From NCBI GenBank assembly GCA_900548675.1, contig URLJ01000001.1, positions 9,012-73,011 on the forward strand: a DNA stretch of 64,000 bases, written 5' to 3'. Both the position numbers and the translations under genes were made by a program. Within the stretch, counting starts at the first letter, position 1, and every line of letters starts with the position of its first letter. Under the pieces are notes generated by a model, which saw only the letters and a list, made by a program, of their open reading frames with translations, did not search any database and was not told the origin of the DNA. Origin of the DNA: an uncultured Mollicutes bacterium (GTDB taxonomy: Bacteria > Bacillota_I > Bacilli_A > ML615J-28 > CAG-313). This document shows positions 2,335 through 26,471 of this stretch, piece by piece.

Positions 2335-2511
2335 GTCTCCGACCTAGCCCCAGTTTGCATGCCACTGGTTTAAGGGGTCAATGGCGTCTGCAGCTACCAA
2401 CACCTTTATACTCTCCCAGCTAGGAACTGCCTAATTGTGAACGTACGTGCTTACAGCTCAAAGCCTTATAGCGCGAGACACTTTCGAGCAGCTAGATATA
2501 TTGAACAGCTG

Positions 2512-2691: not shown

Positions 2692-2859
2692 AGCAACCTC
2701 CCTTATTATTATTTTATTATTATAATATAATTATATAATAATTTTAGATAAAAGTCAAGTTTTATATTTATTAAAATTTAAAAGAAAAATAGTTGATTTT
2801 TATAAGTGAGTGGTGCGCAGCACAATTCTCCTTGTCTTTGCAACTACCTCTCAAACCCT

Positions 2860-12858: not shown

Positions 12859-13002
12859 ATAAACAAAAAGAAACCCTCTGGTACAAACCAGAGGGTAATA
12901 TATGCTGGATTTTCTTTTATGTGAAAATCTAATATCCAGAGTTTTTTAGGCAGTTTGCTCCTATCTGCCACGGATTAGGCATATCTCTAACTCTAAACTT
13001 CG

Positions 13003-13075
13003 CCTAAGCCAGGACTCGAACCTGTATCTCTATATAAATAGCGCTCTAACCAATTAAGCTACATAAGCGAAGTGC
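13003..13075 (-). tRNA. tRNA-like gene, anticodon arm unresolved (possible degenerate tRNA)
   Basis: Minus-strand D-arm tagcttaattggttagagc and T-arm caggttcgagtcctgg; acceptor gcttatg/cttaggc extended by cttc/gaag; no clean anticodon stem found. Confidence 0.35.
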
Positions 13076-13143
13076 GTAAGTTTTGTTATCTTTGCTTACG
13101 CTAAGCGACTTTCACCGCATTTTTGGTTAGTGCAAATACAAAT

Positions 13144-13219
13144 TGGTCTTCGTGGTAAGAGTCGAACTTACAACCTCATGGTCCCAAACCACGCGGCTTA
13201 CCATCAAGCCTTCACGAAG
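13144..13219 (-). tRNA. tRNA-Pro(UGG)
   Basis: Acceptor cttcgtg/cacgaag, anticodon loop ttTGGga, T-arm gtaagttcgactcttac, CCA encoded. Confidence 0.8.
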
Positions 13220-13570
13220 ATAAAGGTTGGCAAACATTTTAATTATATTCAGGAGAGTTTGCCCAAACATAACTCCCTAAGTTTGGTAAGGTTTTTCTTA
13301 GCTGGAATATGAATGATAACCTTTAACATTCTTACCAGCATTGATAGCCCCAAACAGCTATCTTAGCCAAGGAGGTCTTCCCGAAGGATTACTCCCTAAG
13401 CTATGGTATAAGAAATAGCTTTAGCTGTCTCCGTTTGGTTTATCTAACAGCATATAGCCCAGGCTCACGGAATAAAACTATTTCATACTGGCAAAACAAC
13501 AGTAAGACTATGAATGCCTCTTTCACTCCTACTATTCTTACTTTATAGGCGGGCCATAGATTGTTGTTTC

Positions 13571-13646
13571 TGGTGGAACCCCAAGGAATCGAACCTTATC
13601 CTTCGGTTCTTCAGACCGACGCGCACACCAGTTACGCCAGAGTTCC
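13571..13646 (-). tRNA. tRNA-Phe(GAA)
   Basis: Acceptor ggaactc/gggttcc, anticodon loop ctGAAga, T-loop ttcgatt, CCA encoded. Confidence 0.8.
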
Positions 13647-13716
13647 ATAAACGGGGATGTCTGGAGCAGACAAATCATTAATCCCAGCTTTTCTTACAGC
13701 ACTCATAGTGCAGCCC

Positions 13717-14340
13717 CTAATCTAGATGATATCTTTGTTTCCAAGAAAGACTATTTTCTCTTGGAAAATTATAATGTTTCGCCACTAAATTGGTGAATTT
13801 TTCTGTTGGGTTTCGTTTTAAAACTTCTTGGAAAAAATAATAATCTTCTCCATGTTTCATATTTACATCATTTTTTAAACCCTTTATAAATTCAGTACGC
13901 ATTAATTTTACACTACCACAATAATTCACTTTAGTTTCTTGTGCTAAACGCCAGATAGTACCATCATTTATTCTTAAATCAAAATAAATTAAATCTTCCC
14001 CATTTGCATGCGCAATAACTTCTTCTATTGCTGATAAAAAATAATCGTCAGAACCTAATAAAACTATATATTCACCTTTAGCTTTTTCGTAACCAAGATT
14101 AACGGCATTAGAAACTCCTTGATTAATTTCTAAATTGCAATAATTAATTGCACAAATAAGATTATTATCATTAATGTATTCCAAAATTTTATTATGTGTA
14201 TTATCAGTTGAACCATCATTAACGATAATTACTTCTATGTCTTTTCTATTTGGAATGCTATACAATGCACGAAGAATTAAATTTTCTTGATTATATACTG
14301 GAACTATTACGGTTAATTTATAATTCATATGATACCTCAT
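13717..14340 (-). CDS. Glycosyltransferase family 2
   Basis: LTVIVPVYNQENLILRALYSI...IIVNDGSTDNT is the GT2 N-terminal signature. Confidence 0.8.
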   Translation of the reverse strand: MRYHMNYKLTVIVPVYNQENLILRALYSIPNRKDIEVIIVNDGSTDNTHNKILEYINDNNLICAINYCNLEINQGVSNAVNLGYEKAKGEYIVLLGSDDYFLSAIEEVIAHANGEDLIYFDLRINDGTIWRLAQETKVNYCGSVKLMRTEFIKGLKNDVNMKHGEDYYFFQEVLKRNPTEKFTNLVAKHYNFPRENSLSWKQRYHLD

Positions 14341-14600
14341 TTACCTTTATATATTCTATACCATTCATAGTAATCTGGCTCGCCTGGATAATTCCAAGCT
14401 TTATGAGAATGACAATATTCTTTCCAAGTTGAAGAAAAACTATAATCATAAATAAAATCCCAAGGCTCAACTAATTTGCGATAAGCCTTACCATTTGGTA
14501 TATCTTTTGTTTTTCTTACGACTTTATTACAATATCGTTTTCCCCATTTGCTACTATCTCTATCCTTACAAAAAGGATATTTTTTATAACTTCTACTCAT
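14337..14600 (-). CDS. Hypothetical protein
   Basis: ORF. Confidence 0.5.
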   Translation of the reverse strand: MSRSYKKYPFCKDRDSSKWGKRYCNKVVRKTKDIPNGKAYRKLVEPWDFIYDYSFSSTWKEYCHSHKAWNYPGEPDYYEWYRIYKGK

Positions 14601-14671
14601 AATTTACCTCCTATGAGGTTTTACCTCATTAGAAAGTAACTCTGTTCTTATTCATAAGACCAACTCCTTAT

Positions 14672-14923
14672 TTAATTAAATGGTATTAAATCAGAAGATA
14701 AAATAGTGCTATCAACTATTTTTAATGTACTGCACGTTGGGCATTGTACTTTTTTATTTAATCTTTTCGTATGCCACTGATTCATATATAAAGACGAATC
14801 AAAAGTAGTTTCTTCATCAATTTCTTCTATAATATCTTCTTTATCGTATTCAAAAATACAACCACATTTATAACAATTTAATCTATTACTTGGTTTAATA
14901 TATCCTTCTTTTATAACTTTCAT
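14672..14923 (-). CDS. Zinc-ribbon hypothetical protein
   Basis: CYKCGC ... CPTC cysteine pairs. Confidence 0.5.
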   Translation of the reverse strand: MKVIKEGYIKPSNRLNCYKCGCIFEYDKEDIIEEIDEETTFDSSLYMNQWHTKRLNKKVQCPTCSTLKIVDSTILSSDLIPFN

Positions 14924-15282
14924 ACAATTCCTTCTTTCTTATTAATTTGTTTTGGCTGGCGCGTTGCAGCGCCAGATAAGAGTTTATTACCACATACGGT
15001 CTAGTACTAACCTGCTATTGTCCCCGTTACGAGCGTAAGTTTTGGGTTGTTTATGGATTGCGGCAAGCCCTCTCGCCAGAGCCCTCTTATTCACCGCCTT
15101 TGAGTACTTTTACTTGCTATCTTACGACATTAGTATCCCATTACTAGATACCCGACTGATAGATACCATTTGGAGCTGACTTGGGTTTTTATCGGCGTCA
15201 ACAAGTCTGTAACCCCATAATCATAAAAAACAGTTTGGAAATAGCTTCAATCCACTTATTTTCTATTTAGCCGACAGTCTGC
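14924..15282 (-). other. GC-enriched ORF-free block of unknown function (candidate structured RNA)
   Basis: No ORF above 60 aa on either strand; local GC well above the window average; no tRNA resolvable. Confidence 0.3.
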
Positions 15283-15359
15283 TGGTAGCGACAGTTGGAC
15301 TCGAACCAACGACCTACTGGGTATGAACCAGTTGCACTAGCCAACTGTGCTATGTCGCT
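15283..15359 (-). tRNA. tRNA-Met(CAU) elongator-type (or Ile-lysidine type)
   Basis: Acceptor agcgaca/tgtcgct, anticodon loop ttCATac, T-arm gttggttcgagtccaac, CCA encoded. Confidence 0.8.
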
Positions 15360-15468
15360 ATATAGGTGGTGTTCGAGGATTTAAGTACTATTACCTCGTA
15401 TCGGCTCCCTCGCGCCGCACATTTGTTGGTCATTTATTATACGCGACAACTGTGAACTCTCGCGTAGC

Positions 15469-15543
15469 TGGCACCGGCGCTAAGACTCGAACTCAGACAA
15501 ACAGTTTTGGAGACTGTTGTGCTACCGATTACACTACACCGAT
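15469..15543 (-). tRNA. tRNA-Trp(CCA)
   Basis: Anticodon loop ctCCAaa, stem acagt/actgt, T-arm ctgagttcgagtcttag, CCA encoded; the acceptor has two G-U pairs. Confidence 0.7.
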
Positions 15544-15611
15544 ATAGACTACCAGGCTTAACTTATAATGCGCCAAACCTGTTTGCAACTTCCAATGCGC
15601 ATATAATTAAA

Positions 15612-15784
15612 CAGCTTTCTTCCAATTAAAACCGAAGGCGCGTTTGCCAGTATTAATAGAATTAACTATTAACATTTGAACTTTCCAGTCATCCATTTTT
15701 GTATCAATAGATGCAGAAGCCTCCTTAATTGAATTGAATTGTGCTATTTCTTTTTTATCTTTTACTTGTTTAATTTTTTCCATT
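15612..15784 (-). CDS. Small hypothetical protein (about 57 aa), not in the ORF track
   Basis: aaaggtggttatata-ATG gives MEKIKQVKDKKEIAQFNSIKEAS...; lies between tRNAs. Confidence 0.35.
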
Positions 15785-15808
15785 ATATAACCACCTTTCT
15801 AAATTGAT

Positions 15809-15884
15809 TGGAGCACGATGCGAGACTCGAACTCGCCCCATCTGCTTGGAAGGCAGGAATGCTAGCCACTGACACCAATCGTGC
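15809..15884 (-). tRNA. tRNA-Gly(UCC)
   Basis: Acceptor gcacgat/atcgtgc, anticodon loop ctTCCaa, T-arm gcgagttcgagtctcgc, CCA encoded. Confidence 0.75.
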
Positions 15885-15899
15885 AAATAAAGGTTAGTA

Positions 15900-16742
15900 C
15901 TTTTGATAAAGCAGACTGTACCAAACTGCTTTTGTAATAGCTATCGTTGAGAGCCTTTACCTTCCTGCATCTTCACTCAAAGGTGAGCCGCGTACACCAT
16001 CTCTCAATATTAAACAGGGTCTATTGTTCCACTATTACATCAATAATCTTACATATCTCAGTTTAGTTTGTACCTCGTTACTCTTTATGAATAAGTATTT
16101 TCATACTGGAAGATTACAGAATACTTCCAACTAACAGTTCAACTCTGTAAGATAATTCACCTATCTTCATCTGGGAATATTTACTGTTAGAGCCTAAGCC
16201 ACGACATTTTCAACCCAACTCCAACTCGTCTTGCAATTAGCAAGTTTGCCAGAGCGTCCGCTTAGCTTCACTTTCTCACGACTAAACTCATCTTGAAACC
16301 AGACCTCTAATATATTTCCACCGAATTTCACTTGGAGCCACTTCCAACTCCTTTGGTCTGTGCCTTACGCCGTTGATAGCGCATTCAGCCATAATGACTA
16401 TTGTTCTTGTACTTTTTTGAGCTACCCGATTTCCACCACGAGGAGGTAAGTACACTGGAAATCATATTTGGTTTGGTGGGGCGGCACTCCCACATCTCTT
16501 ATAAGCCCTAAATCTTACCTATAATGGATTTTAACCATTCCTCCACAGTTGCCCGGCTGTCACGGACTCGAACCGTTCGATATTAGGGTTGATAGCTGCC
16601 TTTCTATCCTCAAACCTGCAATAGGCCGTTGCTGGTTATAACTTTTTCGTATCGCCGACACTCTCTCGCTACAAGAGCCGCTTGCCTAAATTCACTATTA
16701 GGTCTGTTACAGACTGTTTCGCATTTCACCTATCGCTATGTA
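15900..16742 (-). other. About 840-bp GC-enriched ORF-free block; candidate structured ncRNA or degenerate tRNA region
   Basis: No ORF above 20 aa with an RBS on the minus strand; a T-loop-like ggttcgagtcc (reverse complement at 16565-16575) lacks a matching acceptor. Confidence 0.3.
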
Positions 16743-16955
16743 TTAAACAGAAAAATAACTAACTGAGCAATTAGGATATTCTGTTTTTAATTGATTAGTA
16801 CGTTCTTTTGCTATTGGCGCACTTTCTACATATTCACTATAAATTATTTTATAAGGAACATCAGAATTTATGCGTCCTCCTTCTGCTACTATTATTTTTT
16901 GTCTTATTTTCTTTTCTACTTTCTTTTCTACAACATTAGATTTTTTTACTGCCAT
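16743..16955 (-). CDS. Hypothetical protein
   Basis: ORF. Confidence 0.5.
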   Translation of the reverse strand: MAVKKSNVVEKKVEKKIRQKIIVAEGGRINSDVPYKIIYSEYVESAPIAKERTNQLKTEYPNCSVSYFSV

Positions 16956-16981
16956 ATTAAATACTTCCTTTCTTTTTATAT

Positions 16982-17326
16982 TTATTGTGGTATTTTCAAT
17001 TTTTTAATTACTTCAACTTTTGCTATAAATTTGCCAAGTTTAAAAGTTATTTTACCGTTATTTACTGTTAAAATTGTACCTTCTTTAAAGTTATTTATTA
17101 TATTTTGAATAATTTTATTTTTAAGACTATCGGTTGTAAGTAAATTATTGTCCTCTAACAAAGCTTTTGCTTCAGTAAATTTTATTTCATAAACTTTGTC
17201 ATTCACAGTAATTAAATTATAAATTCCATTACCTGTCATTGAGTATTTTCTTTGATAAGTATTAGGAAAATATTTTTTTAAAAACTCACCAAACTTATAA
17301 TCATATTCCCAAAAATATTCTATCAT
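16982..17326 (-). CDS. Hypothetical protein
   Basis: ORF. Confidence 0.55.
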   Translation of the reverse strand: MIEYFWEYDYKFGEFLKKYFPNTYQRKYSMTGNGIYNLITVNDKVYEIKFTEAKALLEDNNLLTTDSLKNKIIQNIINNFKEGTILTVNNGKITFKLGKFIAKVEVIKKLKIPQ

Positions 17327-17357
17327 TCAAATCACTTTCCTTTCTTTCTATAATATA

Positions 17358-17386
17358 ATTATACATTAATTTTTATAAAAAGTCAA
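17358..17386 (-). promoter_or_regulatory. Conserved early promoter cassette (minus)
   Basis: ttgact-17-tataat-tatattataga. Confidence 0.7.
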
Positions 17387-17389
17387 ATT

Positions 17390-17566
17390 TGCGAAACCTC
17401 ACATCACGCGGAGTGCCTTTCCTCTCAGCCACCGCCCAGTTTCCCAGGCAGGAAGGAGTCGAACCTTCGTCCGCAACTTGATAAAAGAAAGTATATACTT
17501 TTGCAACGTTTTAGAGTGTTGCTCCTCTGCGCTGGTATTATATATATTAAATATTATATAATCAAT
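17390..17566 (-). other. tRNA-like structured element downstream of the HNH gene; not resolvable as an intact tRNA
   Basis: T-arm gaaggttcgactccttc with a 3' acceptor-like ctgcctg but no complementary 5' strand; several hairpins (gcaac/gttgc, aaagtatatacttt). Confidence 0.3.
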
Positions 17567-18097
17567 TTAAATTAAAGCCCATTCTTCGTCTGTATACTGT
17601 TTTATTTCTGATTTTTTAGATGGTAATTTTTCTGAAATGCACCATTTTCTAATAGCATTATCACTAACTTCAAACATTTTTCCAATTAGTACAAAAGAAT
17701 TGTTTCTTATTAAATTTTTTAATTCTTCACGAGAAGGTCGATTTGCAACCTTTCTACGGTATAAACTACTACATTTAAAACATCTAATATTTTCAGAATT
17801 AATGATTGTCCCACAGTCGCAACATTTATTTGGCGGACTTATATAATAATCGTTTTCTTTTTCAAATTTTCCAGTTTGATGAAATCTAGTATGGTCTCCT
17901 TTTGTTTTAAAAACCATTAAATTAGAAGGATTATTATTGCTTCTATTTTCATCTATGTGATGAACTACTTCTTCCGAAGTTAAATTTCTACCAAGCATTT
18001 TTTCAGCAACTAAAATATGGTCATAAACACAACCAGAATTACCTATTGTTCTAGAATGATTAGGACACCAACTAGCATCATAGCCATTTATATTCAT
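17567..18097 (-). CDS. HNH homing endonuclease (HNH_3-type) embedded in the tRNA array
   Basis: EEVVHHIDENRSNNNPSNLMVF motif and C-terminal zinc-ribbon cysteines. Confidence 0.8.
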   Translation of the reverse strand: MNINGYDASWCPNHSRTIGNSGCVYDHILVAEKMLGRNLTSEEVVHHIDENRSNNNPSNLMVFKTKGDHTRFHQTGKFEKENDYYISPPNKCCDCGTIINSENIRCFKCSSLYRRKVANRPSREELKNLIRNNSFVLIGKMFEVSDNAIRKWCISEKLPSKKSEIKQYTDEEWALI

Positions 18098-18113
18098 TTT
18101 AATACCTCTTTTA

Positions 18114-18187
18114 TGGTGAGGATACCAAGAATCGGACTTGAGTCTATTGATTAAAAGTCAATTGCTTTACCACTAAGCTATATCCCC
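18114..18187 (-). tRNA. tRNA-Lys(UUU)
   Basis: Acceptor ggggata/tatcctc, D-arm tagcttagtggtaaagc, anticodon loop ctTTTaa; non-canonical T-loop tccgatt; CCA encoded. Confidence 0.75.
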
Positions 18188-18193
18188 ATTTAT

Positions 18194-18270
18194 TGGTGGA
18201 GAATGACGGACTCGAACCGTCCACCTTCTCGGTGCAAGCGAGATGTTCTAGCCAGATGAACTAATTCCCC
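18194..18270 (-). tRNA. tRNA-Ala(UGC)
   Basis: Acceptor ggggaat/attctcc, anticodon loop ctTGCac, T-arm gacggttcgagtccgtc, CCA encoded. Confidence 0.8.
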
Positions 18271-18394
18271 ATAGGCCCTCGTTTGTTTTGTTATCGCGTC
18301 TCTGCCAGTCAAACGAGCAAATATCTCACGCCTATTAAATTATAGGTAATTCTCAATTTATTATTCTATTTAACGCTCCTGAGAAAAGAGCACT

Positions 18395-18469
18395 TGGCGC
18401 CTCGACCGAGAATTGAACTCGGGTCTCCTGCGTGACAGGCAGGTGTCATGACCACTAAACTACCGAGAC
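18395..18469 (-). tRNA. tRNA-Asp(GUC)
   Basis: Anticodon stem cctgc/gcagg, loop ctGTCac, T-arm ccgagttcaattctcgg, CCA encoded. Confidence 0.75.
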
Positions 18470-18571
18470 ATTAATACAGTTTTGATGTAGACTGTAAACT
18501 ACCTCTATGTCCTTTAGATGTCGCATAGAGTGACCTCGAGATTGGAAAGACCTCTCTCATATAATGTTCCC

Positions 18572-18659
18572 TGGCGCGTACTCAAGGATTCGAACCTTGG
18601 AGCCGTTTCCGACTTCCAGTTTTCAAGACTGGCGCCTTCAGCCACTCGGCCAAGTACGC
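18572..18659 (-). tRNA. tRNA-Ser(UGA) with long variable arm
   Basis: Perfect acceptor gcgtact/agtacgc, anticodon loop ctTGAaa, long variable arm, T-arm caaggttcgaatccttg, CCA encoded. Confidence 0.8.
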
Positions 18660-18665
18660 ATATGT

Positions 18666-18740
18666 TGGTAGCCCGTACCAGAGTCGAACTGGTGACTCCA
18701 CCGTGAAAGGGTGGTGGCTTGACCACTTGCCCAACGGGCC
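18666..18740 (-). tRNA. tRNA-Glu(UUC)
   Basis: Acceptor ggcccgt/acgggct, anticodon stem ccacc/ggtgg, loop ctTTCac, T-arm accagttcgactctggt, CCA encoded. Confidence 0.75.
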
Positions 18741-18876
18741 ATATAAACTCTCACAGCCAGCTCTTTATATTCTATGTAAACATGACGACGAATTCTATTG
18801 AGCATCTTTAAGAGTTACCTCGCCGATTGTACCCACTGTGATAGGGAGGCTATAACTTATCGCTATTAACACTTAG

Positions 18877-18908
18877 CTTGGTGCGAACATACCAAGTACC
18901 TCTTTTTT
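18877..18908 (+). terminator. Plus-strand rho-independent terminator-like hairpin at the edge of the minus-strand tRNA cluster
   Basis: cttggt-gcgaacat-accaag followed by tacctcttttttta. Confidence 0.35.
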
Positions 18909-18920
18909 TAATCTATAATA

Positions 18921-18950
18921 ATTATACTATAATTTTAAATAAAAATCAAA
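18921..18950 (-). promoter_or_regulatory. Conserved early promoter cassette (minus; TTGATT variant)
   Basis: ttgatttttatttaaaattatag-tataat-tattatag. Confidence 0.6.
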
Positions 18951-19326
18951 TTTTTATTCCTTTATTTTCCAAATTTAATAAACATTCTGCTAAATAATCA
19001 TCATTATGCTCTTTATAAATCATTAATCCTCGTTGTGAAATATCTTTACCTAAAACAATAAATCTATTAACTTCTTCTTCGTTATATCGTTTGGATAATT
19101 GAGTACGCATCATTTTGGGATTTGGATTATATCCTCTTTGTCTCATTTCATTAAAAATTAAAATAGAATATGCCACTAAAAAACTTTCTGAATGATTAAA
19201 AACATAATTAACTACTGCGTGTTTTCTACCCCAGCCATTTCCTAATAAAGCTGCGCATTCTCTCCACTGTCCACATAATTGTTGTTGTGGTAATTTATGA
19301 ATTAAATTTTGATGCCATAATCTCAT
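18946..19326 (-). CDS. Hypothetical protein (MRLWHQ N-terminus; conserved Firmicute/phage family, function unknown)
   Basis: ORF. Confidence 0.5.
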   Translation of the reverse strand: MRLWHQNLIHKLPQQQLCGQWRECAALLGNGWGRKHAVVNYVFNHSESFLVAYSILIFNEMRQRGYNPNPKMMRTQLSKRYNEEEVNRFIVLGKDISQRGLMIYKEHNDDYLAECLLNLENKGIKI

Positions 19327-19356
19327 ATCACATCATTCCTTTCTAACTATAATATA

Positions 19357-19385
19357 ATTATACCATAGTTTGGAAAGAAAATCAA
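19357..19385 (-). promoter_or_regulatory. Conserved early promoter cassette (minus)
   Basis: ttgattttctttccaaactatgg-tataat-tatattatag. Confidence 0.6.
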
Positions 19386-19786: not shown

Positions 19787-19788
19787 AT

Positions 19789-20115
19789 TTATTCTCCTTT
19801 CTTTAATAATTTTTCAAAAATATGCGCGTTTTCTTCAATTAAATTACAAATATTATCTAACTGCTTTAAATAACCTTTTCCAATATTGCTTCTTAACAAT
19901 TCTGCACAAATTTCGGCGCAAATTTGTTCTTGAGAGTTTTTAAAATCAGCTGAATAAACTCTATGATAACTTACCGCGATTGGTATTTCACTTTCAAATA
20001 CGAATATAAGAATTTCGTTTTCACCAAAGACCAATTTAATATATCTATCATAATCGTCCTCCATTACATTATAATATATGTAATTAATCAAATCTTCTAA
20101 ATGGTCTACTTTCAT
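19789..20115 (-). CDS. Hypothetical protein
   Basis: ORF. Confidence 0.55.
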   Translation of the reverse strand: MKVDHLEDLINYIYYNVMEDDYDRYIKLVFGENEILIFVFESEIPIAVSYHRVYSADFKNSQEQICAEICAELLRSNIGKGYLKQLDNICNLIEENAHIFEKLLKKGE

Positions 20116-20117
20116 TC

Positions 20118-20429
20118 TTATTCCTCCCAGAATTCAATATTATCTATATGTTCTTTACACACCTTTGATATTTTTTGCACAAAATAAATAAAATTTGGAT
20201 TATATTCTACAACAATTAAACAAGGTTTAAAATCATCAAAGGTAGTTTGTAATACTCTACCTCCAAATTTTAAATTCCATTCTGCTAAAAAATCTATAAT
20301 GGTTCCATCACTTATACAAATATAATTTTCACTCCAATAATTATCATATTTTCTTCGTTTATTAAAAGAAACATATTGTTTCTTCATTGCTGGGTTTTTA
20401 ACTTTCTCTTTTATTCTCATATTTATCAA
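20118..20429 (-). CDS. Hypothetical protein
   Basis: ORF. Confidence 0.55.
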   Translation of the reverse strand: MINMRIKEKVKNPAMKKQYVSFNKRRKYDNYWSENYICISDGTIIDFLAEWNLKFGGRVLQTTFDDFKPCLIVVEYNPNFIYFVQKISKVCKEHIDNIEFWEE

Positions 20430-20441
20430 CTCTCTTTCTTA

Positions 20442-20519
20442 TGGTAGACGCAGAGAGACTCGAACTCCCGACCCACGCTTTAGAAGAGCGTTGCTCTAAT
20501 CCATCTGAGCTATGCGTCT
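20442..20519 (-). tRNA. tRNA-Arg(UCU)
   Basis: Perfect acceptor agacgca/tgcgtct, D-arm tagctcagatggattagagc, anticodon loop ctTCTaa, T-arm gggagttcgagtctctc, CCA encoded. Confidence 0.8.
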
Positions 20520-20639
20520 ATAAGTGGCAGCTACTCGGCGAAACTGCCTGCGGAATATTGTTAACACTTTTTATGTTAGAATTGGCTCCTAGAGCATATA
20601 TCCTACATTCCTTTTACCAACTTTGCAACCGAGTTCTTT

Positions 20640-20716
20640 TGGTACTCGATGATGGAATCGAACCATCGACCTCTGCGTTATCAGCACAGCGCTCTAACCG
20701 ACTGAGCTAATCGAGT
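20640..20716 (-). tRNA. tRNA-Ile(GAU)
   Basis: Perfect acceptor actcgat/atcgagt, D-arm tagctcagtcggttagagc, anticodon loop ctGATaa, T-arm gatggttcgattccatc, CCA encoded. Confidence 0.8.
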
Positions 20717-20719
20717 ATA

Positions 20720-20905
20720 TTATTGTTCAAAATCACCTTCGTAAAAAATTAAGCCTATTAACATTCCCAAAATTGAAGAAACTAATAATCCTCCTAAAAA
20801 ACTTGCTTGAAATGCCATCCAAGACATACTGATTGTACCTCCTGCAACACCTATAATTATTAAATAAAACCCAAGTTTTTTAAAAAATACCCTTGTCTTA
20901 CTCAT
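20720..20905 (-). CDS. Small membrane protein
   Basis: Two hydrophobic helices. Confidence 0.5.
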   Translation of the reverse strand: MSKTRVFFKKLGFYLIIIGVAGGTISMSWMAFQASFLGGLLVSSILGMLIGLIFYEGDFEQ

Positions 20906-20925
20906 TTCTTTCCTCCTATAATATA

Positions 20926-20954
20926 ATTATATAACAATTTTTATGTAAAATCAA
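20926..20954 (-). promoter_or_regulatory. Conserved early promoter cassette (minus)
   Basis: ttgattttacataaaaattgtta-tataat-tatattatagg. Confidence 0.6.
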
Positions 20955-21011
20955 CTTTATAAAAGGAATGCGCGAAAAGTAAGAAAATTATGCTTTCCGC
21001 GCCGTAGTCTA

Positions 21012-21218
21012 TTAATTTGTTAAATCTTTTACTGTGTTTTTTGTTGTGTCTATTGGATGTTCTACTGTTTGTTCAATTCCTCGCACGAAGCCTTTGTCAT
21101 CTTTTTTTACTATTTCGTAATTATTAACTAAGGTATAAGTTACACCTACTGTTAACATTATAGCTAGTATAATAAGAAGCCAATGCCACCAGTGCCAATG
21201 AAAATCTCTGTGTTCCAT
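21012..21218 (-). CDS. Small membrane protein (His/Trp-rich N-terminus)
   Basis: ORF with one transmembrane segment. Confidence 0.5.
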   Translation of the reverse strand: MEHRDFHWHWWHWLLIILAIMLTVGVTYTLVNNYEIVKKDDKGFVRGIEQTVEHPIDTTKNTVKDLTN

Positions 21219-21271
21219 AGCAAAACTCCTTTTATATATATTAAATCAAAAGAGGTTGCCCTCAATTGATT

Positions 21272-22789
21272 TTATAATCTAACAACATCATATATTGAAT
21301 CATTTAGTGTTTTTAACATTGTGTTATATGGGTCTTCATCCACCGCCATTAATACGCTTCTAAAAGCTGAAACAGATTGCCCACTTACCATTGCAATATT
21401 TTTTTGTTCGCATACTCCGTGATATACATCTTGTCTACTATCTACGTTCCAATATATTATTTTTGGAATAATATATCCGTGACGTTGAAATCTCATTGCA
21501 ATTTCATCCATTAGTTTGTTTTGTCTTGCAATTTCAGTATTTCCATACATTGATGAATAACGTGTTCCAGTTGCTCCATCAAATTCCATATCTGAAATTA
21601 TTACAATCGCTTTAGGCATATCTTCTTGTGTTAATTTGTTGTTAATAGCAGTTTGTAACACTAAATTAAACGCAGCTTCTATATTAGTATTGTCGACAAT
21701 TGCTGGAATGCTTCTAACTTTTTCAGCTAAATTTAAACCTTTTAACTCTACAAAATTTGGTTTTGATGAGAAAGTCATAAAATTATTATGCCAAGGTCCA
21801 TTATTTCTTTCAGCAAAGTAAATTGCTAATCCTATTGAAGTACAAATTGGTCTTCCACTCATTGAGCCAGAAGTGTCTGCCATTACTAATATATTGTTGT
21901 TTCCTTCAATATAATTTGGTAATGCTTTCCATTGTTCTTCAAGTACTTCATCCCATTTGTTAAAACTAAAATTACTGCTTCTCCAATTTTCTGACAATCC
22001 TGCGGCTTCCATTATATCATAAGGATATAATGTTTTTGCATTAATTTTTTCTTCTCCTGATTTTACTTTTTCAATGTACTCTTTAAATTTGATTAAATTA
22101 TGCTCTCCAAAAGCATTTCTATATTTTTTCATTGCCAATGAAGGTACTTCATTGTACACAATTTTATCCCATTCATTTTTGCTCATATTTCTTTCAACTA
22201 TATTAAGTTGTTTTCTTAATTTTGATAAAATTTGTCTATATTCTTTATATGAATAATGTAATTTTTTTGCAGTTAATTTACCTAATTTAGCGCTTTCGAT
22301 TGACACACCAGATGTTGACTTTAACCATTTTGCTAATAAACTAATTTGTTTACCTGCCTCAAGCGCAGCTAAATCAGCTTCCAATTGATTTTTTATAACA
22401 TCAAATGCTAAATCTTCCAATGGTGTTTTTACAAATTCATATAAATCATCCCATCTACCAAAAATAGGCACTAAATTAATATTTTTTGCCATAACTTCTT
22501 GATGATAGTTTGCTAAATATTTTATTAAAATACGAAATGTTCTTCTTTCTCCAAGTCCACCTCTAATATTTCTTGCATAAAATAACATTTTCATAGCTAA
22601 TAGTTGGTCTTCGGCAAAAGCTTTAATAAATTTCGTTTCAATTTCTTGTGAAGGTCTTGTTCTTAACGCACCAATTACTGCGAATAAATCTAATAAATCT
22701 GAATTTGTTGTTCTATATGCTATCGCTCCATTTTCTGTTAATGTTTCGTTTGTTTCATTTTTAATACTTTTTATAAAATTTTCACTCAT
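21272..22789 (-). CDS. von Willebrand factor A (vWA) domain protein with a long helical N-terminal region; possibly Ro60/TROVE-like
   Basis: MIDAS motif ILVMADTSGSMSG around residue 305, followed by IVIISDMEFDG; the N-terminal 300 aa are unassigned. Confidence 0.6.
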   Translation of the reverse strand: MSENFIKSIKNETNETLTENGAIAYRTTNSDLLDLFAVIGALRTRPSQEIETKFIKAFAEDQLLAMKMLFYARNIRGGLGERRTFRILIKYLANYHQEVMAKNINLVPIFGRWDDLYEFVKTPLEDLAFDVIKNQLEADLAALEAGKQISLLAKWLKSTSGVSIESAKLGKLTAKKLHYSYKEYRQILSKLRKQLNIVERNMSKNEWDKIVYNEVPSLAMKKYRNAFGEHNLIKFKEYIEKVKSGEEKINAKTLYPYDIMEAAGLSENWRSSNFSFNKWDEVLEEQWKALPNYIEGNNNILVMADTSGSMSGRPICTSIGLAIYFAERNNGPWHNNFMTFSSKPNFVELKGLNLAEKVRSIPAIVDNTNIEAAFNLVLQTAINNKLTQEDMPKAIVIISDMEFDGATGTRYSSMYGNTEIARQNKLMDEIAMRFQRHGYIIPKIIYWNVDSRQDVYHGVCEQKNIAMVSGQSVSAFRSVLMAVDEDPYNTMLKTLNDSIYDVVRL

Positions 22790-23379
22790 TTTAAACCTCC
22801 ATTTTCCTAAATAAAGACAAGGCGCTTATAACATTTCCTTTTGAGCAGGAAATTTAGGATTTGAACCTAAATAAACCAATAACGAATTTGCTGGATGCGC
22901 CTTTAAAACTAGGGACTGATATCATTTTTCGGACTACACGTCTGACTTAATATACAATAAATTGCTGGCTGTCCCTACAATATAATATTTTTAATTTAAC
23001 TCGTGTTTGAAAGATGTTCTTGGCATATTACTGGGGTCGCCTCAATCTTTCCTCCCACGACATTGTAAGCTTTTCGCATGGAGCGAAATACTTTCTAATT
23101 TGATGTTTTATCAAATTCCAAAATTACAAAAAATTGTAATACTGCTTTTACGCATTTGCTGTATGACCCCTTAGATTACTAAAAGTATGTGTAATTGTGT
23201 TCGATATTAACTTTGACACTTTGCTGGGCTCGTCTCTGTTAATATCTTGCACCTAATATGTTCTGGAGCTTACTCCTCGTAAGCATTGTTGGACAAACCA
23301 ACCTAATTTGTATCTAAAATACAAACTGTCTTTTTCAAGACGATTGCTGTGTGAGCCCTTATTTATTTTCTATAATATA
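22790..23379 (-). other. About 590-nt non-coding leader with a tRNA-like T-arm and mini-helix immediately upstream of the vWA gene (candidate Y-RNA-like or other ncRNA)
   Basis: Minus RNA uuuagguucaaauccuaaa (T-arm-like; reverse complement at 22852-22870), then uuuccugcucaaaaggaaa hairpin, then the RBS ggagg; no ORF above 30 aa. Confidence 0.3.
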
Positions 23380-23408
23380 ATTATAGCAGAAATTTTATTT
23401 AAAATCAA
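23380..23408 (-). promoter_or_regulatory. Conserved early promoter cassette (minus)
   Basis: ttgattttaaataaaatttctgc-tataat-tatattatag. Confidence 0.6.
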
Positions 23409-23518
23409 CTATTTAATTATAGATTTCCACTGTATAACCATAATGTTCTAATAATTGTTTCATATTAAAAACTCCTACTGGATTTGCGCTATGAATATAG
23501 ATTTTATTGCATTTAATA

Positions 23519-23728
23519 TTATTCTCCACTATTAGTTTTGCAATATCGTAACCAGTTTTTTCTTCGCCGTAAATCGTGGTCTAAATCTACAATATCAAAT
23601 CTATAAACTAATAAATTTTTAAGTGCTTGTTCATAATTACGAGCAATAGTTACTTTATTTATTTCTTCTTTCCAAATTTTTGGAAATCTTACATCATCAA
23701 CATATAGAATATTTTTCATAATTATCAC
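23519..23728 (-). CDS. Receiver (CheY-like) domain-like protein, N-terminal part; appears truncated by a frameshift at an A-run, with continuation in another frame down to about 23413
   Basis: N-terminus MKNILYVDD...FDIVDLDHDL; the adjacent frame encodes ...GYDIAKLIVENNIKCNKIYIHSANPVGVFNMKQLLEHYGYTVEIYN and ends at 23413-23415. Confidence 0.4.
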   Translation of the reverse strand: MIIMKNILYVDDVRFPKIWKEEINKVTIARNYEQALKNLLVYRFDIVDLDHDLRRRKNWLRYCKTNSGE

Positions 23729-23749
23729 TCACTTTCTTAATTTATAATA

Positions 23750-23779
23750 ATTATATTACAATTTTAACTTAAAATCAAA
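23750..23779 (-). promoter_or_regulatory. Conserved early promoter cassette (minus)
   Basis: ttgattttaagttaaaattgtaa-tataat-tattataaatt. Confidence 0.6.
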
Positions 23780-23786
23780 TTTTTAA

Positions 23787-23862
23787 TGGAGTCCTGTATT
23801 GGAATTGAACCAATGATAACGGTTTTGCAGACCGTCGCCTTAACCAACTTGGCTAACAGGAC
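23787..23862 (-). tRNA. tRNA-Cys(GCA)
   Basis: Perfect acceptor gtcctgt/acaggac, anticodon loop ctGCAaa, T-arm attggttcaattccaat, CCA encoded. Confidence 0.8.
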
Positions 23863-23865
23863 AAA

Positions 23866-23940
23866 TGGTGCGTCTACTAGGAGTCGAACCTAGAGCTCAG
23901 GGTTCGTAGCCCTGCATTTTATCCATTAAACTATAAACGC
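23866..23940 (-). tRNA. tRNA-Arg(ACG)
   Basis: Acceptor gcgttta/tagacgc, anticodon stem caggg/ccctg, loop ctACGaa, T-arm ctaggttcgactcctag, CCA encoded. Confidence 0.75.
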
Positions 23941-23943
23941 ATA

Positions 23944-24017
23944 TGGGGTAGACTGACGGTTACGCTCCGTCGTCTGGAGTGCCACAAACTCCCGTTCTAC
24001 TATTGAACTAAGCCTAC
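23944..24017 (-). tRNA. tRNA-His(GUG), with an atypical T-loop
   Basis: Acceptor gtaggct/agtctac, discriminator C, D-arm tagttcaatagtagaac, anticodon loop ttGTGgc; T-stem gacgg/ccgtc with unusual loop agcgtaa; CCA encoded. Confidence 0.55.
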
Positions 24018-24054
24018 ACCCAAACTCACTTTATAAGTGAGCAAAGGTCTAAAC

Positions 24055-24519
24055 TTAATACCATAAACAACTATAATATTCTATAAATAGTTGCATACCT
24101 TCTCTTTTAGCTTCTCTATCAATACCTTCATATCCTTCGCGCGGACCGGTTAAATCTATCTTAAAAGCCAAAATCATTTTATCTAAAATAGATAACCATT
24201 TATCGTGCGCAGCTTTATTAGCTTGTTCTCTTTCGTGGTCATTTTCCCAATTATATTTATTTGGTGTTAAACATCCTGGAGTACATAATGGGGCTATATA
24301 CTCTCTAAAATAACATAATTTAGAGTATATAAATAAACTTAAAGTATTGTCCAAACTAAAAAATTCATAATCACAAAAACCTTCTTTATCTTCTTTATTA
24401 CGACAATCTGCCGCAGCAACGTGGTCTAAATTTTCATCTTTTTCTAATTTTGGACTAAAAACTCCTGGCATATCATACCATTCAAAACCTAATTCTTTCA
24501 AATATTTATTTATTTTCAT
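24055..24519 (-). CDS. Hypothetical protein
   Basis: ORF. Confidence 0.55.
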   Translation of the reverse strand: MKINKYLKELGFEWYDMPGVFSPKLEKDENLDHVAAADCRNKEDKEGFCDYEFFSLDNTLSLFIYSKLCYFREYIAPLCTPGCLTPNKYNWENDHEREQANKAAHDKWLSILDKMILAFKIDLTGPREGYEGIDREAKREGMQLFIEYYSCLWY

Positions 24520-25640
24520 AATAATACTACCACCTTATCTATCGCGCGAGTTATAGCAGTATATAGCCATCTACGATATTCTTCTCCTTGAAGCCAACAA
24601 TCATCATAAACTAATACTTTATTAAATTGGGAACCTTGCGCCTTGTGAACTGTGATTGCATATCCAAAATCCATTTCAATAGACTTTTTAGGTAATACTT
24701 TCCCTCGTTTAGTGTATTCTATAAAAGGTTTTCCCTCTTTTAATAACTTGTGGTCTAATAATAATTCTCCAAAACTATCTTCTCCAATATTGAAAGTCGC
24801 ACGAATAGTATTTGTCATTTTAGTATTAATATTTGAAACCTGCCCTGTTAATCCATTAACCAAACATTCACCATTTAAAGATGCATAATCCCAATAATTT
24901 TTTATACAAATTAACTTATCATTTTCATTTAAGGTATCAGTAAATCCTAATAATTTTCTAATTTGATTATTTAAATTTTTACGAGTGTCATTCTTCGCAC
25001 ATAAAATTTGGTCAGCCCATAACAACATTCCTTCATTTAAATTAGATTTGTTATAAGTTTGAATATTTGTACCTTTTATACCAGTTTTTAAATTTTTGCC
25101 TTCACGCAATTGCATTGAATACTTTATAATATCATTGTCCAAAGCTTGGCGCATAACTTCTGTTAAAAAAATATGTGGTTTATTTAACAATCCATTATCG
25201 CTGTCTTTATCAATTGGCGGCAATTGAAATGGGTCTCCCAACGCTATTACATATCTATTATGTTTCATTAATAAATTCCATAATTTTTTTGGACACATTG
25301 AAATTTCGTCTACAATAATTAATTTTAGTTCTTCATCTAATTCTGGCTTTGGTCTATGCACAAAACCACCGTAACCATTTGGATAAGATTTATATAATAA
25401 CTTATGTAAAGTCATCGCGGCTTTACCTTGATTTTGCAAAACTAATGCAGCCTTACCTGTAAAAGAAGCGTATGCCACTTCGTCTTCTGCAAATCCAAAG
25501 GCGTCAACGATTGCATTAACTAAATAACTTTTCCCTGTTCCTGCATATCCTGCAATTACAGTATAAGGTTTACCTTCTTTATATCTTTGAAGACAAATTT
25601 CTAAACCTTCTTGTTGTTTTTTAGTTAAATTATAACCCAT
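24516..25640 (-). CDS. SF1 DNA helicase (Dda/RecD-like)
   Basis: Walker A GYAGTGKS, Walker B IIVDEISM, motif III GDPFQLPP, motif VI ITVHKAQGSQF. Confidence 0.85.
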   Translation of the reverse strand: MGYNLTKKQQEGLEICLQRYKEGKPYTVIAGYAGTGKSYLVNAIVDAFGFAEDEVAYASFTGKAALVLQNQGKAAMTLHKLLYKSYPNGYGGFVHRPKPELDEELKLIIVDEISMCPKKLWNLLMKHNRYVIALGDPFQLPPIDKDSDNGLLNKPHIFLTEVMRQALDNDIIKYSMQLREGKNLKTGIKGTNIQTYNKSNLNEGMLLWADQILCAKNDTRKNLNNQIRKLLGFTDTLNENDKLICIKNYWDYASLNGECLVNGLTGQVSNINTKMTNTIRATFNIGEDSFGELLLDHKLLKEGKPFIEYTKRGKVLPKKSIEMDFGYAITVHKAQGSQFNKVLVYDDCWLQGEEYRRWLYTAITRAIDKVVVLL

Positions 25641-25935
25641 ATTTTTCTTTCCTCCATAGCTCCCAAAAATCTGATTTAATTATAAAATCATTCATTTCTT
25701 CAAAAATTTTATGCATAAAGAAATCAGATTCTCCTCTTATCCATTCTCTAATTATTCTATTTCTATTAGGTTCTAATTCATCTATTAATTCATAAAGATA
25801 ATAACTTACACCATCTAATTGCGCTTTTTGGTATTGTCGTACCCAAAATCTATTCTCAAATACGTCTTCCTTTAATGACTTATTAAATTCTCTTACTTTT
25901 TTATTTACTTTTTTATCTGTTTTTGTTTTACTCAC
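25630..25935 (-). CDS. Hypothetical protein
   Basis: ORF. Confidence 0.5.
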   Translation of the reverse strand: MSKTKTDKKVNKKVREFNKSLKEDVFENRFWVRQYQKAQLDGVSYYLYELIDELEPNRNRIIREWIRGESDFFMHKIFEEMNDFIIKSDFWELWRKEKYGL

Positions 25936-26157
25936 TAATAATCACCAAACCATTCATTTATACTTTTTTCTGCAAAGCCCATTGCAGCTGCAAATTCTTT
26001 ACACATACAATAATAGCTTTCTAAACTCATTATTTGTCCATCGCTTTCTTCACCATACCAAACTTTTTCCATTTTGCAAGTTTCATTATAAGCATCTTGT
26101 CTAGTATTGTCAATTAATTGAAATCTCATTGTATTTTTATTTTTCTTTCCCATAATA
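25935..26157 (-). CDS. Hypothetical protein (start at the internal Met with RBS aaggag)
   Basis: The track ORF 25935-26255 overlaps 26158-26364; the RBS-supported start MGKKNKNTMRF at 26157 removes the overlap. Confidence 0.45.
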
Positions 26158-26364
26158 TTAATCTCCTTCTTTTTCCCAAATATGTTGCCCACGCACTTTA
26201 CCTCGTGGAACTTCACCTTTTTCAAACCATCCACAATCTTTTCGTCTATCTGCACATAAATAACAGCATCCTATTGCACAAGTGTTGTGAAAACCAACTA
26301 TATCTAAATCATAATAAAATTTACATTCTTCACATTTTGTATATTTTTCTTCTTCTTTTTCCAT
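26158..26364 (-). CDS. Small Cys-rich (zinc-binding) protein
   Basis: CEECKF ... CAIGCCYLCADRRKDCGWF. Confidence 0.5.
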   Translation of the reverse strand: MEKEEEKYTKCEECKFYYDLDIVGFHNTCAIGCCYLCADRRKDCGWFEKGEVPRGKVRGQHIWEKEGD

Positions 26365-26378
26365 ATTAATTACTCCTT

Positions 26379-26469
26379 TGGCGCGACGAGATGGATTCGA
26401 ACCATCGGTGGCCTTTCGACCACGCTTCCTTAGCAGGGAAGTGGTTTAAGCCAGCTCACCCATCGCCGC
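26379..26469 (-). tRNA. tRNA-Ser(GCU) with long variable arm
   Basis: Acceptor gcggcga/tcgtcgc, anticodon loop ctGCTaa, long variable arm, T-arm gatggttcgaatccatc, CCA encoded. Confidence 0.8.
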
Positions 26470-26471
26470 AT

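Follow-up and report, generated by a model that had tools for sequence, protein, structure and literature searches.

The 64,000-nucleotide (nt) stretch of DNA analysed here (the window) has a GC content of approximately 30% and a strand switch near 30.5 kb. Its minus strand carries an island of transfer RNA (tRNA) genes, a transfer-messenger RNA (tmRNA) gene, small open reading frames (ORFs) and GC-rich blocks. The GC-rich blocks are conserved structured RNAs other than tRNAs, at least five in addition to the tRNAs and tmRNA, and one of these, an RNA of approximately 365 nt, is fused to a candidate hepatitis delta virus (HDV)-like ribozyme. The region is best explained as an RNA island, expressed early, in an uncultivated gut phage that is AT-rich and roughly 118 kb long, and, taken as a whole, we consider this explanation probable.

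Sixteen canonical minus-strand tRNA genes were found between 13144 and 26469. ARAGORN and Rfam (at gathering score) agreed on each, and all 16 encode the 3′ CCA. These genes and the tmRNA gene are:

13144-13219, minus strand, tRNA-Pro (UGG), Rfam 42.8 bits
13571-13646, minus strand, tRNA-Phe (GAA)
15283-15359, minus strand, tRNA with a CAU anticodon, either elongator Met or lysidine-type Ile
15469-15543, minus strand, tRNA-Trp (CCA anticodon)
15809-15884, minus strand, tRNA-Gly (UCC)
18114-18187, minus strand, tRNA-Lys (UUU), T loop UCCGAUU, Rfam 71 bits
18194-18270, minus strand, tRNA-Ala (UGC)
18395-18469, minus strand, tRNA-Asp (GUC)
18572-18659, minus strand, tRNA-Ser (UGA), class II
18666-18740, minus strand, tRNA-Glu (UUC)
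20442-20519, minus strand, tRNA-Arg (UCU)
20640-20716, minus strand, tRNA-Ile (GAU)
23787-23862, minus strand, tRNA-Cys (GCA)
23866-23940, minus strand, tRNA-Arg (ACG)
23944-24017, minus strand, tRNA-His (GUG), T loop AGCGUAA, Rfam 48.4 bits
26379-26469, minus strand, tRNA-Ser (GCU), class II
26853-27189, minus strand, tmRNA with the tag ANEVLMAA* and an encoded CCA (ARAGORN; RF00023, 99.1 bits over the full-length model, gathering score 47)

The 16 minus-strand tRNAs scored 42.8-71.3 bits in Rfam (E 1e-5 to 1e-13); together with tRNA-Asn and tRNA-Thr of the plus strand they passed the RF00005 gathering score of 29 at 42.8-72.7 bits, and ARAGORN concurred. As each tRNA had an E of at most 1e-5 and synteny was observed in over 10 contigs of related phages, the array is not a product of chance. 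The tRNA with the CAU anticodon could be tRNA-Ile2, because ATA accounts for 35% of the Ile codons. An earlier note on this DNA had proposed a near-complete, phage-borne tRNA set with encoded CCA, which these calls bear out; its tRNA coordinates were right to within 1-2 nt, and the odd T loops that it described in tRNA-Lys (TCCGATT) and tRNA-His (AGCGTAA) are present. ARAGORN, which it had suggested as a check, called these 16 genes as tRNAs. Its count of 17 minus-strand tRNAs held for the 16 canonical genes; the seventeenth is a tRNA-like element that lacks CCA and is rejected by ARAGORN. The tmRNA, which lies 380 nt past the range considered in that note and had gone unnoticed there, is syntenic in relatives. 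As regards its tRNAs the array is unremarkable; the interest lies in its RNA cargo.

When the island was searched by megablast, none of the 50,697 deposited phage records matched, and IMG/VR yielded one relative only, which was reached by three routes. A 114-aa ORF inside the island (16982-17326) had 117 homologues in metagenomes, and the contigs retrieved through it constitute a phage family of approximately 115-127 kb, mostly from human gut samples (individual contigs are cited below by L number). The gene order of the tmRNA, tRNAs and small genes is common to these relatives. Metagenome-assembled genome labels and the style of the promoters and ribosome-binding sites suggest a host lineage within Bacillota. 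The small ORFs of the island otherwise matched no informative family in profile searches.

The structured RNAs found between the tRNA genes are:

16041-16403, minus strand, multi-domain RNA of approximately 365 nt (‘BIG RNA’), attached to the 3′ side of the ribozyme, with a long-range closing helix
16407-16463, minus strand, HDV-like ribozyme candidate (theta-type, minimal P4), starting 4 nt after the 3′ end of the skipping-rope RNA
16468-16618, minus strand, skipping-rope RNA (RF02924; Rfam 45.7 bits, gathering score 36.7, model positions 1-80)
17386-17532, minus strand, block I RNA, a putative YrlA-like tRNA mimic (14 distinct sequences)
14953-15173, minus strand, ‘E RNA’ of approximately 220 nt, between tRNA-Met and the next ORF (nhmmer, 37 loci)
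16621-16742, minus strand, module H1 of approximately 120 nt, upstream of the skipping-rope RNA (found in 22 loci)
18741-18900, minus strand, structured leader RNA between a promoter (18921-18949) and tRNA-Glu (conservation and covariation)
13001-13068, minus strand, tRNA-like element (Rfam tRNA 42.5 bits, no ARAGORN call)

Neither ARAGORN, also when run with introns allowed, nor Rfam at E<=5 detected a tRNA in the GC-rich blocks. Most of the blocks are conserved among relatives at or above the identity of the adjoining coding DNA and covary in non-tRNA folds. Approximately 3 kb of ‘intergenic’ sequence in the island is conserved, covarying RNA; phage tRNA clusters are usually annotated as tRNAs and intergenic sequence, and tRNA-like hairpins in such islands should not be taken for pseudogenes.

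The RNA of approximately 365 nt provides the strongest covariation counts. A conserved 20-mer retrieved 26 further contigs from genome and metagenome collections, 20 of which hold this RNA, and in an alignment of 31 sequences its consensus fold comprised 81 pairs, 56 of them with compensatory changes. Of the cells, 97.2% were paired, compared with 82.6% in shuffled alignments (0 of 500 reached the observed value) and 33-44% when the partners were slid. The RNA drew no Rfam match, ROOL and GOLLD included, in a scan of 15880-16750 at E<=10 or, for five divergent homologues, at E<=1. RNase P RNA, 6S, group II and OLE were considered as identities and rejected, there being no Rfam signal for them at E<=10; the conserved RNase P motifs are also lacking. 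Same-strand tRNA genes flank the RNA on 19 of the 20 additional contigs, the exception being L048, a tRNA-free contig of 1.5 kb. A location just upstream of same-strand tRNAs might mean that the RNA acts in cis, as leader or processing scaffold of the tRNA-Gly that follows, and two short ORFs (45 and 55 codons) that overlap the RNA in the window might indicate a short coding region. Both are unlikely, as the downstream tRNA varies by contig (Gly, Tyr, Lys, Ala or Trp), a long-range helix closes the RNA, helix substitutions are compensatory, indels are not multiples of three, and the ribozyme at the 5′ end points to a defined, released RNA.

The candidate ribozyme was present in 28 homologues representing 20 distinct variants, with 15 versions of P1, 11 of P2 and two of P3, all fully paired. 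All 20 variants parse as P1-P2-P3-P3′-P1′-P1.1-(P4)-P2′, a nested double pseudoknot, and the P1 and P3 columns covary in the ribozyme part of the alignment. In 28 of 28 ribozymes L3 reads UCCWCGU, P1.1 is CC/GG (with GG after P1′), and a C precedes (A/U)AA at J4/2. Cleavage is predicted to occur 5′ of G16463. The score against RF02682 (HDV-F-prausnitzii) was 24.4 bits (23-27 bits in relatives), which does not reach the gathering score of 44. In L051 and L053 the same ribozyme begins 5-7 nt after the CCA of tRNA-Ser. A scan of the window for further HDV-like ribozymes, using the L3 motif with one mismatch, returned only the site at 16436 and a coding coincidence at 29574 in the gene for serine hydroxymethyltransferase (SHMT). 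It was also observed that L4 invariably consists of four self-complementary nucleotides (AGCU, AAUU, CGCG or CAUG) that directly precede the conserved C; these are too few for a hairpin, which hints at pairing between molecules.

Upstream of the ribozyme, the skipping-rope RNA keeps both of its conserved hairpins (38 consensus pairs, 11 compensatory), and its central hairpin holds a 73-nt insert with the T-arm-like sequence GGTTCGAGTCC. In the E RNA, compensatory changes support 15-18 of the 24-29 consensus pairs; its matches reach the distant relatives L011, L013 and L015, and it has no Rfam match. The leader before tRNA-Glu shows 89% mean column identity to L001 in a 223-column alignment, compared with approximately 71% for neighbouring coding DNA, with compensatory changes in 8 of its 32 consensus pairs. 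Covariation in H1 is modest (4 of 27 pairs), and H1 occupies a different place in the array in L013 and L014. Blocks H1, J, K, F, M and C, together with the leader, are conserved with weaker covariation or none. A 351-nt non-coding block between tRNA-Phe and tRNA-Pro (13220-13570, minus strand) has an exceptionally stable predicted fold (z = -3.7 relative to shuffles); it is full-length in the near-identical L003-L005 only, with parts in L006, L019 and L024-L025.

Block I consists, in order, of an H-type pseudoknot, a hairpin, a long stem (S1), a T arm, an acceptor-like stem closed by a GAAA loop, a D arm and an extra hairpin. The T arm (5 of 5 pairs, loop UUCGAMY) and the acceptor-like stem (7 of 7 pairs) are 100% paired and both covary, as do the extra hairpin and pseudoknot stem b. 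The D stem (GCN/NGC, loop AGRGG), S1, which joins the two ends, and pseudoknot stem a were read by eye; the MAFFT columns mis-register there, and the pair counts from them were not used. The tRNA-like domain of YrlA is likewise ordered T arm, loop-closed acceptor stem, D arm (Chen et al. 2014, PMC4201824). In relatives without the neighbouring endonuclease gene, block I begins directly after a tRNA CCA. The loop that caps its acceptor-like stem has 4-16 nt. The segment 17390-17566 had been taken for a tRNA-like remnant of endonuclease traffic; that view does not survive, as the element is present and covarying in relatives free of the endonuclease. The comparative evidence argues instead that block I is a conserved, covarying tRNA mimic with the arm order of YrlA, and not debris.

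A circularly permuted tRNA gene that is matured to a functional tRNA would also possess the full arm set in permuted order, with a hairpin at the position of the anticodon arm, as block I does. This is very improbable: the capped acceptor-like stem lacks both discriminator and CCA, the loop at the anticodon position (5-8 nt) has no conserved triplet, bacteria lack the splicing and ligation pathway for permuted tRNAs, and mimics of the YrlA type share the layout.

The element at 13001-13068 has acceptor, D and T arms, an anticodon arm that is approximately 5 nt short, and no CCA, in agreement with the earlier note, which had described a tRNA-like gene at approximately 13003-13075 without a convincing anticodon stem. 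Its acceptor stem contains a conserved U-U mismatch and covaries in L001 and L019, and the version in L006 is devoid of any anticodon arm. The acceptor covariation in two relatives suggests a maintained tRNA-like element and not a tRNA. The element is embedded in a longer conserved terminal module (approximately 12900-13143), which also contains an upstream covarying hairpin (GCGTAAG...CTTACGC) and a downstream conserved stretch, GAGAGTTAGAGATATGCCTAAYCCGTGGCA, common to L006, L008, L017 and L024.

T-arm-like GGTTCGAnTCC hairpins occur in the skipping-rope insert, in block I and in module 4 of a further group of RNAs (the N modules, below), and Rfam called the truncated element just described. 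Such features could point to degenerate or atypical tRNA genes in the GC-rich blocks, those for Leu, Val, Gln and Tyr included, and could make the element next to the HNH gene a piece of tRNA remaining from endonuclease-driven rearrangement. We regard this as scarcely credible: the blocks drew no tRNA calls from ARAGORN or Rfam under the settings given above, their conservation equals or exceeds that of coding DNA and their covariation is in non-tRNA folds, block I is unchanged in relatives without the endonuclease gene, and the four missing tRNAs are located elsewhere in relatives.

The same island holds a gene for a protein with a predicted Ro60-like fold, together with a set of RNA modules and a gene with a cyclic-phosphate-processing domain; an RNA ligase gene lies just beyond the island:

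21272-22789, minus strand, Ro60-like RNA-binding protein, DUF2828 and DUF7788/vWA (Pfam; predicted fold)
23171-23360, 22976-23172, 22902-22977 and 22814-22903, minus strand, four tandem RNA modules (N modules) directly upstream of the Ro60-like gene
23405-23728, minus strand, cyclic-phosphate-processing receiver domain gene (cREC_REC) with a +1 frameshift (repaired translation, PF20274, E 2e-22)
9806-11080, minus strand, DRB0094-like RNA ligase just downstream of the island (phrog_968, E 2e-69)

An AlphaFold model of the 21272-22789 product, built with 30 homologues (predicted local distance difference test score 82.5), has a predicted HEAT-repeat ring and a vWA domain with a metal ion-dependent adhesion site motif. 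The eight best PDB fold matches to this model were all Ro60/TROVE proteins over the full length, among them Ro60 of a Thermus phage (E approximately 1e-6, TM approximately 0.5). The protein contains the motif DTSGSM, and its VWA_2 match is weak. DUF2828 homologues occur in 710 phage records, among them records of T5-like, Listeria, Staphylococcus and mycobacterial phages; a literature search for DUF2828 returned nothing relevant. In each N module the closing stem is GGGNNC/GNNCCC and the 5′ motif is AYACAGCAA, and module 4 has a covarying T-arm-like hairpin (17 pairs, 6 compensatory). The four modules are candidate Y-RNA-like partners of the protein, and most plausibly the protein, the adjacent modules and the YrlA-like mimic would form a ribonucleoprotein of the Y-RNA type. 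A similar Ro/Y-RNA-type proposal, without proof, has been made for a Listeria phage (PMC12282133). If correct, this links DUF2828 proteins to Ro60/Y-RNA biology, and the locus offers concrete candidate RNA partners.

The cREC_REC gene has the same truncation in the independent assemblies L003 and L004 and is intact (101 aa) in L019. The RNA ligase matched TIGR02306 at E 2e-14, where the cut-off of that model is not reached. Ligases of the DRB0094 type are reported to be enriched 140-fold in phages bearing theta ribozymes (PMC10879173). Apart from this ligase, the island is flanked by the following genes:

27650-28213, minus strand, metallophosphoesterase
29036-30328, minus strand, SHMT

A second tRNA cluster lies on the plus strand near the start of the window:

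278-916, plus strand, tRNA-fMet (CAU), split by an intron (exons approximately 278-315 and 877-916)
998-1073, plus strand, tRNA-Asn (ARAGORN, Rfam)
1077-1151, plus strand, tRNA-Thr (ARAGORN, Rfam)

Three plus-strand tRNAs had been described for this cluster. Asn and Thr stand; fMet is real and is interrupted in its anticodon loop, exon 1 ending ...GGGCTCATA (approximately 315) and exon 2 starting ACCTGGAGG... (877). The intron of approximately 561 nt (approximately 316-876) holds an HNH ORF (383-784; HNH_3, E 2e-17) and matched Intron_gpI (RF00028) at 40.8 bits (E 6e-9), where the gathering score of 50 is not reached; its splice boundaries are ambiguous, with no obvious terminal G. An intron-less allele occurs in L027-L029, L029 being 100% identical to window positions 877-2000, and copies of the exon-intron cassette, 97% identical, stand in L030 and L031 amid unrelated sequence. 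The gene is read as tRNA-fMet interrupted by an HNH-bearing intron of probable group I type. Two calls made by ARAGORN with introns allowed were rejected: a ‘tRNA-Pyl’ at 278-916 is the intron-split fMet gene with a mis-set anticodon, and a ‘tRNA-Stop’ at 22845-23104 is an artefact that stitches N-module hairpins together.

The tRNAs for Leu, Val, Gln and Tyr had been expected in the GC-rich blocks, where no tool finds them; they were located instead in L032, which is 99.8% identical to window positions 274-3000 and carries Leu-UAG, Leu-UAA, Tyr, Gln and Val directly upstream of fMet. The order in L032 suggests that these four amino acids are served from the plus-strand cluster in this phage lineage. 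Window positions 1-273 are unrelated to the L032 sequence upstream of fMet, which places a recombination breakpoint precisely where the tRNA-fMet cassette has its 5′ edge. Two or three promoter-like sequences were noticed on the plus strand of 1-273.

The minus-strand array contains one endonuclease gene:

17567-18097, minus strand, free-standing HNH homing-endonuclease gene (Pfam HNH_3, E 6e-11)

This gene is an insertion between tRNA-Lys and block I, with its own downstream promoter at 17537-17565. It is absent in L001, L006 and L019, where the CCA of tRNA-Lys abuts the downstream RNA, and in L017 and L024 the place after tRNA-Lys is taken by an unrelated ORF of 290 aa. The HNH cassette and the 290-aa ORF cassette both end TTGATTATATAAT...TATATATAATACCA (17537-17566 in the window, approximately 9754-9790 in L017 and L024), with a promoter; the shared end suggests that promoter and CCA are restored in front of the downstream RNA. 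Relatives carry HNH, GIY-YIG and PDDEXK_5 ORFs at other positions in the array. The presence or absence of such genes and their varied sites support endonuclease traffic through the tRNA locus, and the domain matches together with the empty sites in relatives identify both HNH genes as probable homing endonucleases. An HNH gene between the tRNA clusters and homing-endonuclease traffic, both proposed before, are thus upheld, the latter by the empty sites, by the other endonucleases elsewhere and by the fMet intron with its intron-less allele. The proposal of several HNH genes within 12861-26470 is not, as one only lies in that range and the second, in the fMet intron, lies outside it.

Approximately nine near-consensus promoters of the sigma-70 type are oriented for the minus strand (TTGAYT-N17-TATAAT, in many cases with TATATTATAG after it), and a predicted intrinsic terminator closes the long tRNA and non-coding RNA unit:

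12873-12896, minus strand, intrinsic terminator, a 10-bp stem followed by a T run

From these promoters and this terminator we infer early co-transcription of the tRNAs, non-coding RNAs and small genes. The sequence ...(A/T)TAT precedes nearly every tRNA, the tmRNA and the ribozyme G1 (for example ccaaatat/GATTTCC at the ribozyme, the slash marking the start of the RNA) and may be a shared processing signal or leader.

A sequence of events can be proposed on this basis. Transcripts from the promoters would be polycistronic and combine small ORFs of the minus strand with the 16 tRNAs, the tmRNA and five or more further structured RNAs; the terminator would end the longest of these transcripts. 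Host RNase P and 3′-end trimming enzymes would release the tRNAs, and the built-in HDV-like ribozyme would cut one junction, freeing the skipping-rope RNA with a 2′,3′-cyclic phosphate end and remaining, with a 5′-OH, on the 5′ end of the RNA of approximately 365 nt. The Ro60-like protein with its four modules, the YrlA-like mimic, the cREC gene and the RNA ligase would make up a linked RNA-surveillance and repair kit. The homing-endonuclease genes, one free-standing and one in the fMet intron, would be secondary parasites.

With standard wobble, the 18 intact ARAGORN tRNAs of the window read 66% of the codons in 44 window ORFs, the remainder being mostly Leu, Val, Gln and Tyr codons (22% of codons). 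In every box served the top codon is readable, by cognate pairing for the U34 tRNAs and by G34-U wobble for the two-codon boxes and Ile, and the preferred codon matched by the anticodon in each box ends in A or U. TGA is the stop codon of 6 of the 44 ORFs; stop-codon usage is ordinary, and recoding was not seen in the window phage. A tRNA with the anticodon UCA, which would read the UGA stop, was found in the distant relatives L013 (13219-13294) and L015 (17852-17947), and the SHMT gene of both was called as two ORFs; together these suggest TGA recoding in those phages.

Because the anticodons match the preferred codons of the phage, the set appears to be a functional, codon-matched translation supplement. 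Its most likely role is to make phage translation independent of the tRNA pool of the host, be it by matching codons, by outlasting host shut-off or by withstanding tRNA-targeting defences. A possible, if somewhat doubtful, alternative is that the array serves mainly in counter-defence, replacing host tRNAs lost to anticodon nucleases or shut-off, with the kit repairing tRNAs or supplying decoys. The tRNAs co-occur with an RNA ligase, a cREC domain, a metallophosphatase and a Ro60-like protein; the tRNA mimics could be decoys, the atypical T loops of Lys and His might escape host factors, and the near-complete set exceeds the needs of codon bias alone. Nevertheless, the anticodons mirror the commonest codons of the phage, as the classical codon-supplement model predicts, a host defence nuclease is not known here, and the cREC gene is broken in the window strain. 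Counter-defence and codon supplementation are not mutually exclusive.

The most far-reaching interpretation is that the RNA of approximately 365 nt and its 5′ ribozyme represent an unnamed class of large phage non-coding RNA, self-cleaved from tRNA-array transcripts and acting in trans in the takeover of host translation or RNA repair, with a DUF2828 Ro60/Y-RNA-like system around it. We put this forward tentatively, rating it a little short of an even chance. Several points weigh against the explanation of the region as a whole. The genes, the covarying RNA folds, the insertions present in some contigs and absent from others, the codon match and the Ro60-like fold are shown here; all transcript boundaries are predictions, and expression, cleavage, binding and function are deduced from sequence. 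The ribozyme is under the Rfam gathering threshold and its catalytic C was assigned by position alone. The D stem, S1 and pseudoknot stem a of block I score poorly in automatic alignment, and the Rsr-binding motif of YrlA, GNCGAAN0-1G (PMC4201824), is not conserved across the 14 block I sequences. The Ro60-like protein has no sequence-level TROVE membership, its Pfam matches being DUF2828 and DUF7788 only, and has no PDB sequence match at E<=1. The frameshift in the cREC gene of the window strain means that this part of the kit may be inactive. The codon match was judged on the codons of the phage itself.

If the interpretation as an unnamed RNA class with a Ro60/Y-RNA-like system is true, gut-phage ‘tRNA islands’ would be multi-RNA organelle kits rather than codon supplements. 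The ribozyme, which appears to release and cap a large structured RNA, offers a candidate natural job for HDV-like ribozymes beyond trimming tRNA 3′ ends. The RNA of approximately 365 nt is also a compact candidate for establishing what large tRNA-adjacent phage RNAs do, as it is shorter, is represented by 31 sequences and has a solid secondary structure.

Phage tRNA clusters with interspersed homing endonucleases are found in T4, T5, cluster C mycobacteriophages (Bxz1) and Bacillus phage Tsamsa, and in cluster C a tmRNA and a Ro-like protein accompany the tRNAs. The present array likewise has early-region tRNAs interleaved with small ORFs and HNH or GIY-YIG genes; it differs in that its DNA has no similarity to the 50,697 records searched, all tRNAs of the window encode CCA, and the spacers are dense with conserved non-tRNA RNAs. 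Group I introns occur in the anticodon loops of bacterial tRNAs, such as cyanobacterial tRNA-fMet and tRNA-Leu. The fMet intron resembles them in its anticodon-loop insertion, its core match (E 6e-9) and its intron-less allele, and is unlike them in being phage-borne, in having an HNH ORF inside and in scoring under the Rfam gathering threshold.

In published skipping-rope RNAs a Rho-independent terminator forms the 3′ end (Weinberg et al. 2017, PMC5737381), whereas the window copy is followed by a candidate ribozyme; it passes the family gathering score but has the 73-nt insert with its T-arm-like hairpin. Theta ribozymes are minimal HDV-like ribozymes located next to tRNAs in gut phages, by definition within 5 nt (Kienbeck et al. 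2024, PMC10879173). The candidate resembles them in its occurrence in gut Caudoviricetes, its minimal P4, its location on the same strand as tRNAs and the DRB0094-like RNA ligase in the same genome, and the 5-7 nt spacing from the tRNA 3′ end in L051 and L053 is close to the published arrangement. In contrast, the window copy follows a skipping-rope RNA instead of a tRNA, the ribozyme is fused to the RNA of approximately 365 nt in every full-length copy recovered, the window phage shows no sign of stop-codon recoding, and the tRNAs beside the ribozyme encode CCA, as only 4.5% of theta-associated tRNAs do (PMC10879173).

No Rfam match of the Y-RNA type was obtained at E<=5. Block I has the same arm order as the bacterial Y RNA YrlA, with the RNA ends leaving through another stem, and lies on the same strand as the Ro60-fold protein, within approximately 4-6 kb of it. 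It differs in its added 5′ pseudoknot and extra hairpin, and the GNCGAAN0-1G motif is missing; the gene-adjacent modules, several RNAs in tandem upstream of the Ro60-like gene, share AYACAGCAA instead. The protein itself belongs to DUF2828 and not, at sequence level, to TROVE, to which Ro60 (Rsr) belongs.

Four of the ingredients are already known singly: tRNA arrays with homing endonucleases, tmRNAs and Ro/Y-RNA loci in phages, and theta ribozymes. What is new is their combination, the ribozyme-capped RNA of approximately 365 nt and the DUF2828-linked tRNA mimic, none of which matches a curated family; the RNAs are new relative to curated families, and catalogues of anonymous candidates (PMC10690425, PMC8040213) may list them. 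By context, the nearest analogues of the RNA of approximately 365 nt appear to be ROOL and GOLLD. It is likewise large, multi-junction, highly structured, phage-borne and tRNA-adjacent. It is shorter than ROOL (581 nt), and GOLLD, at approximately 800 nt, is also longer. ROOL and GOLLD are large structured RNAs of phages and prophages, typically next to tRNA genes (Weinberg et al. 2017, PMC5737381; cryo-electron microscopy, PMC12286853), and among the three only the RNA of approximately 365 nt is described with a fused 5′ HDV-like ribozyme.

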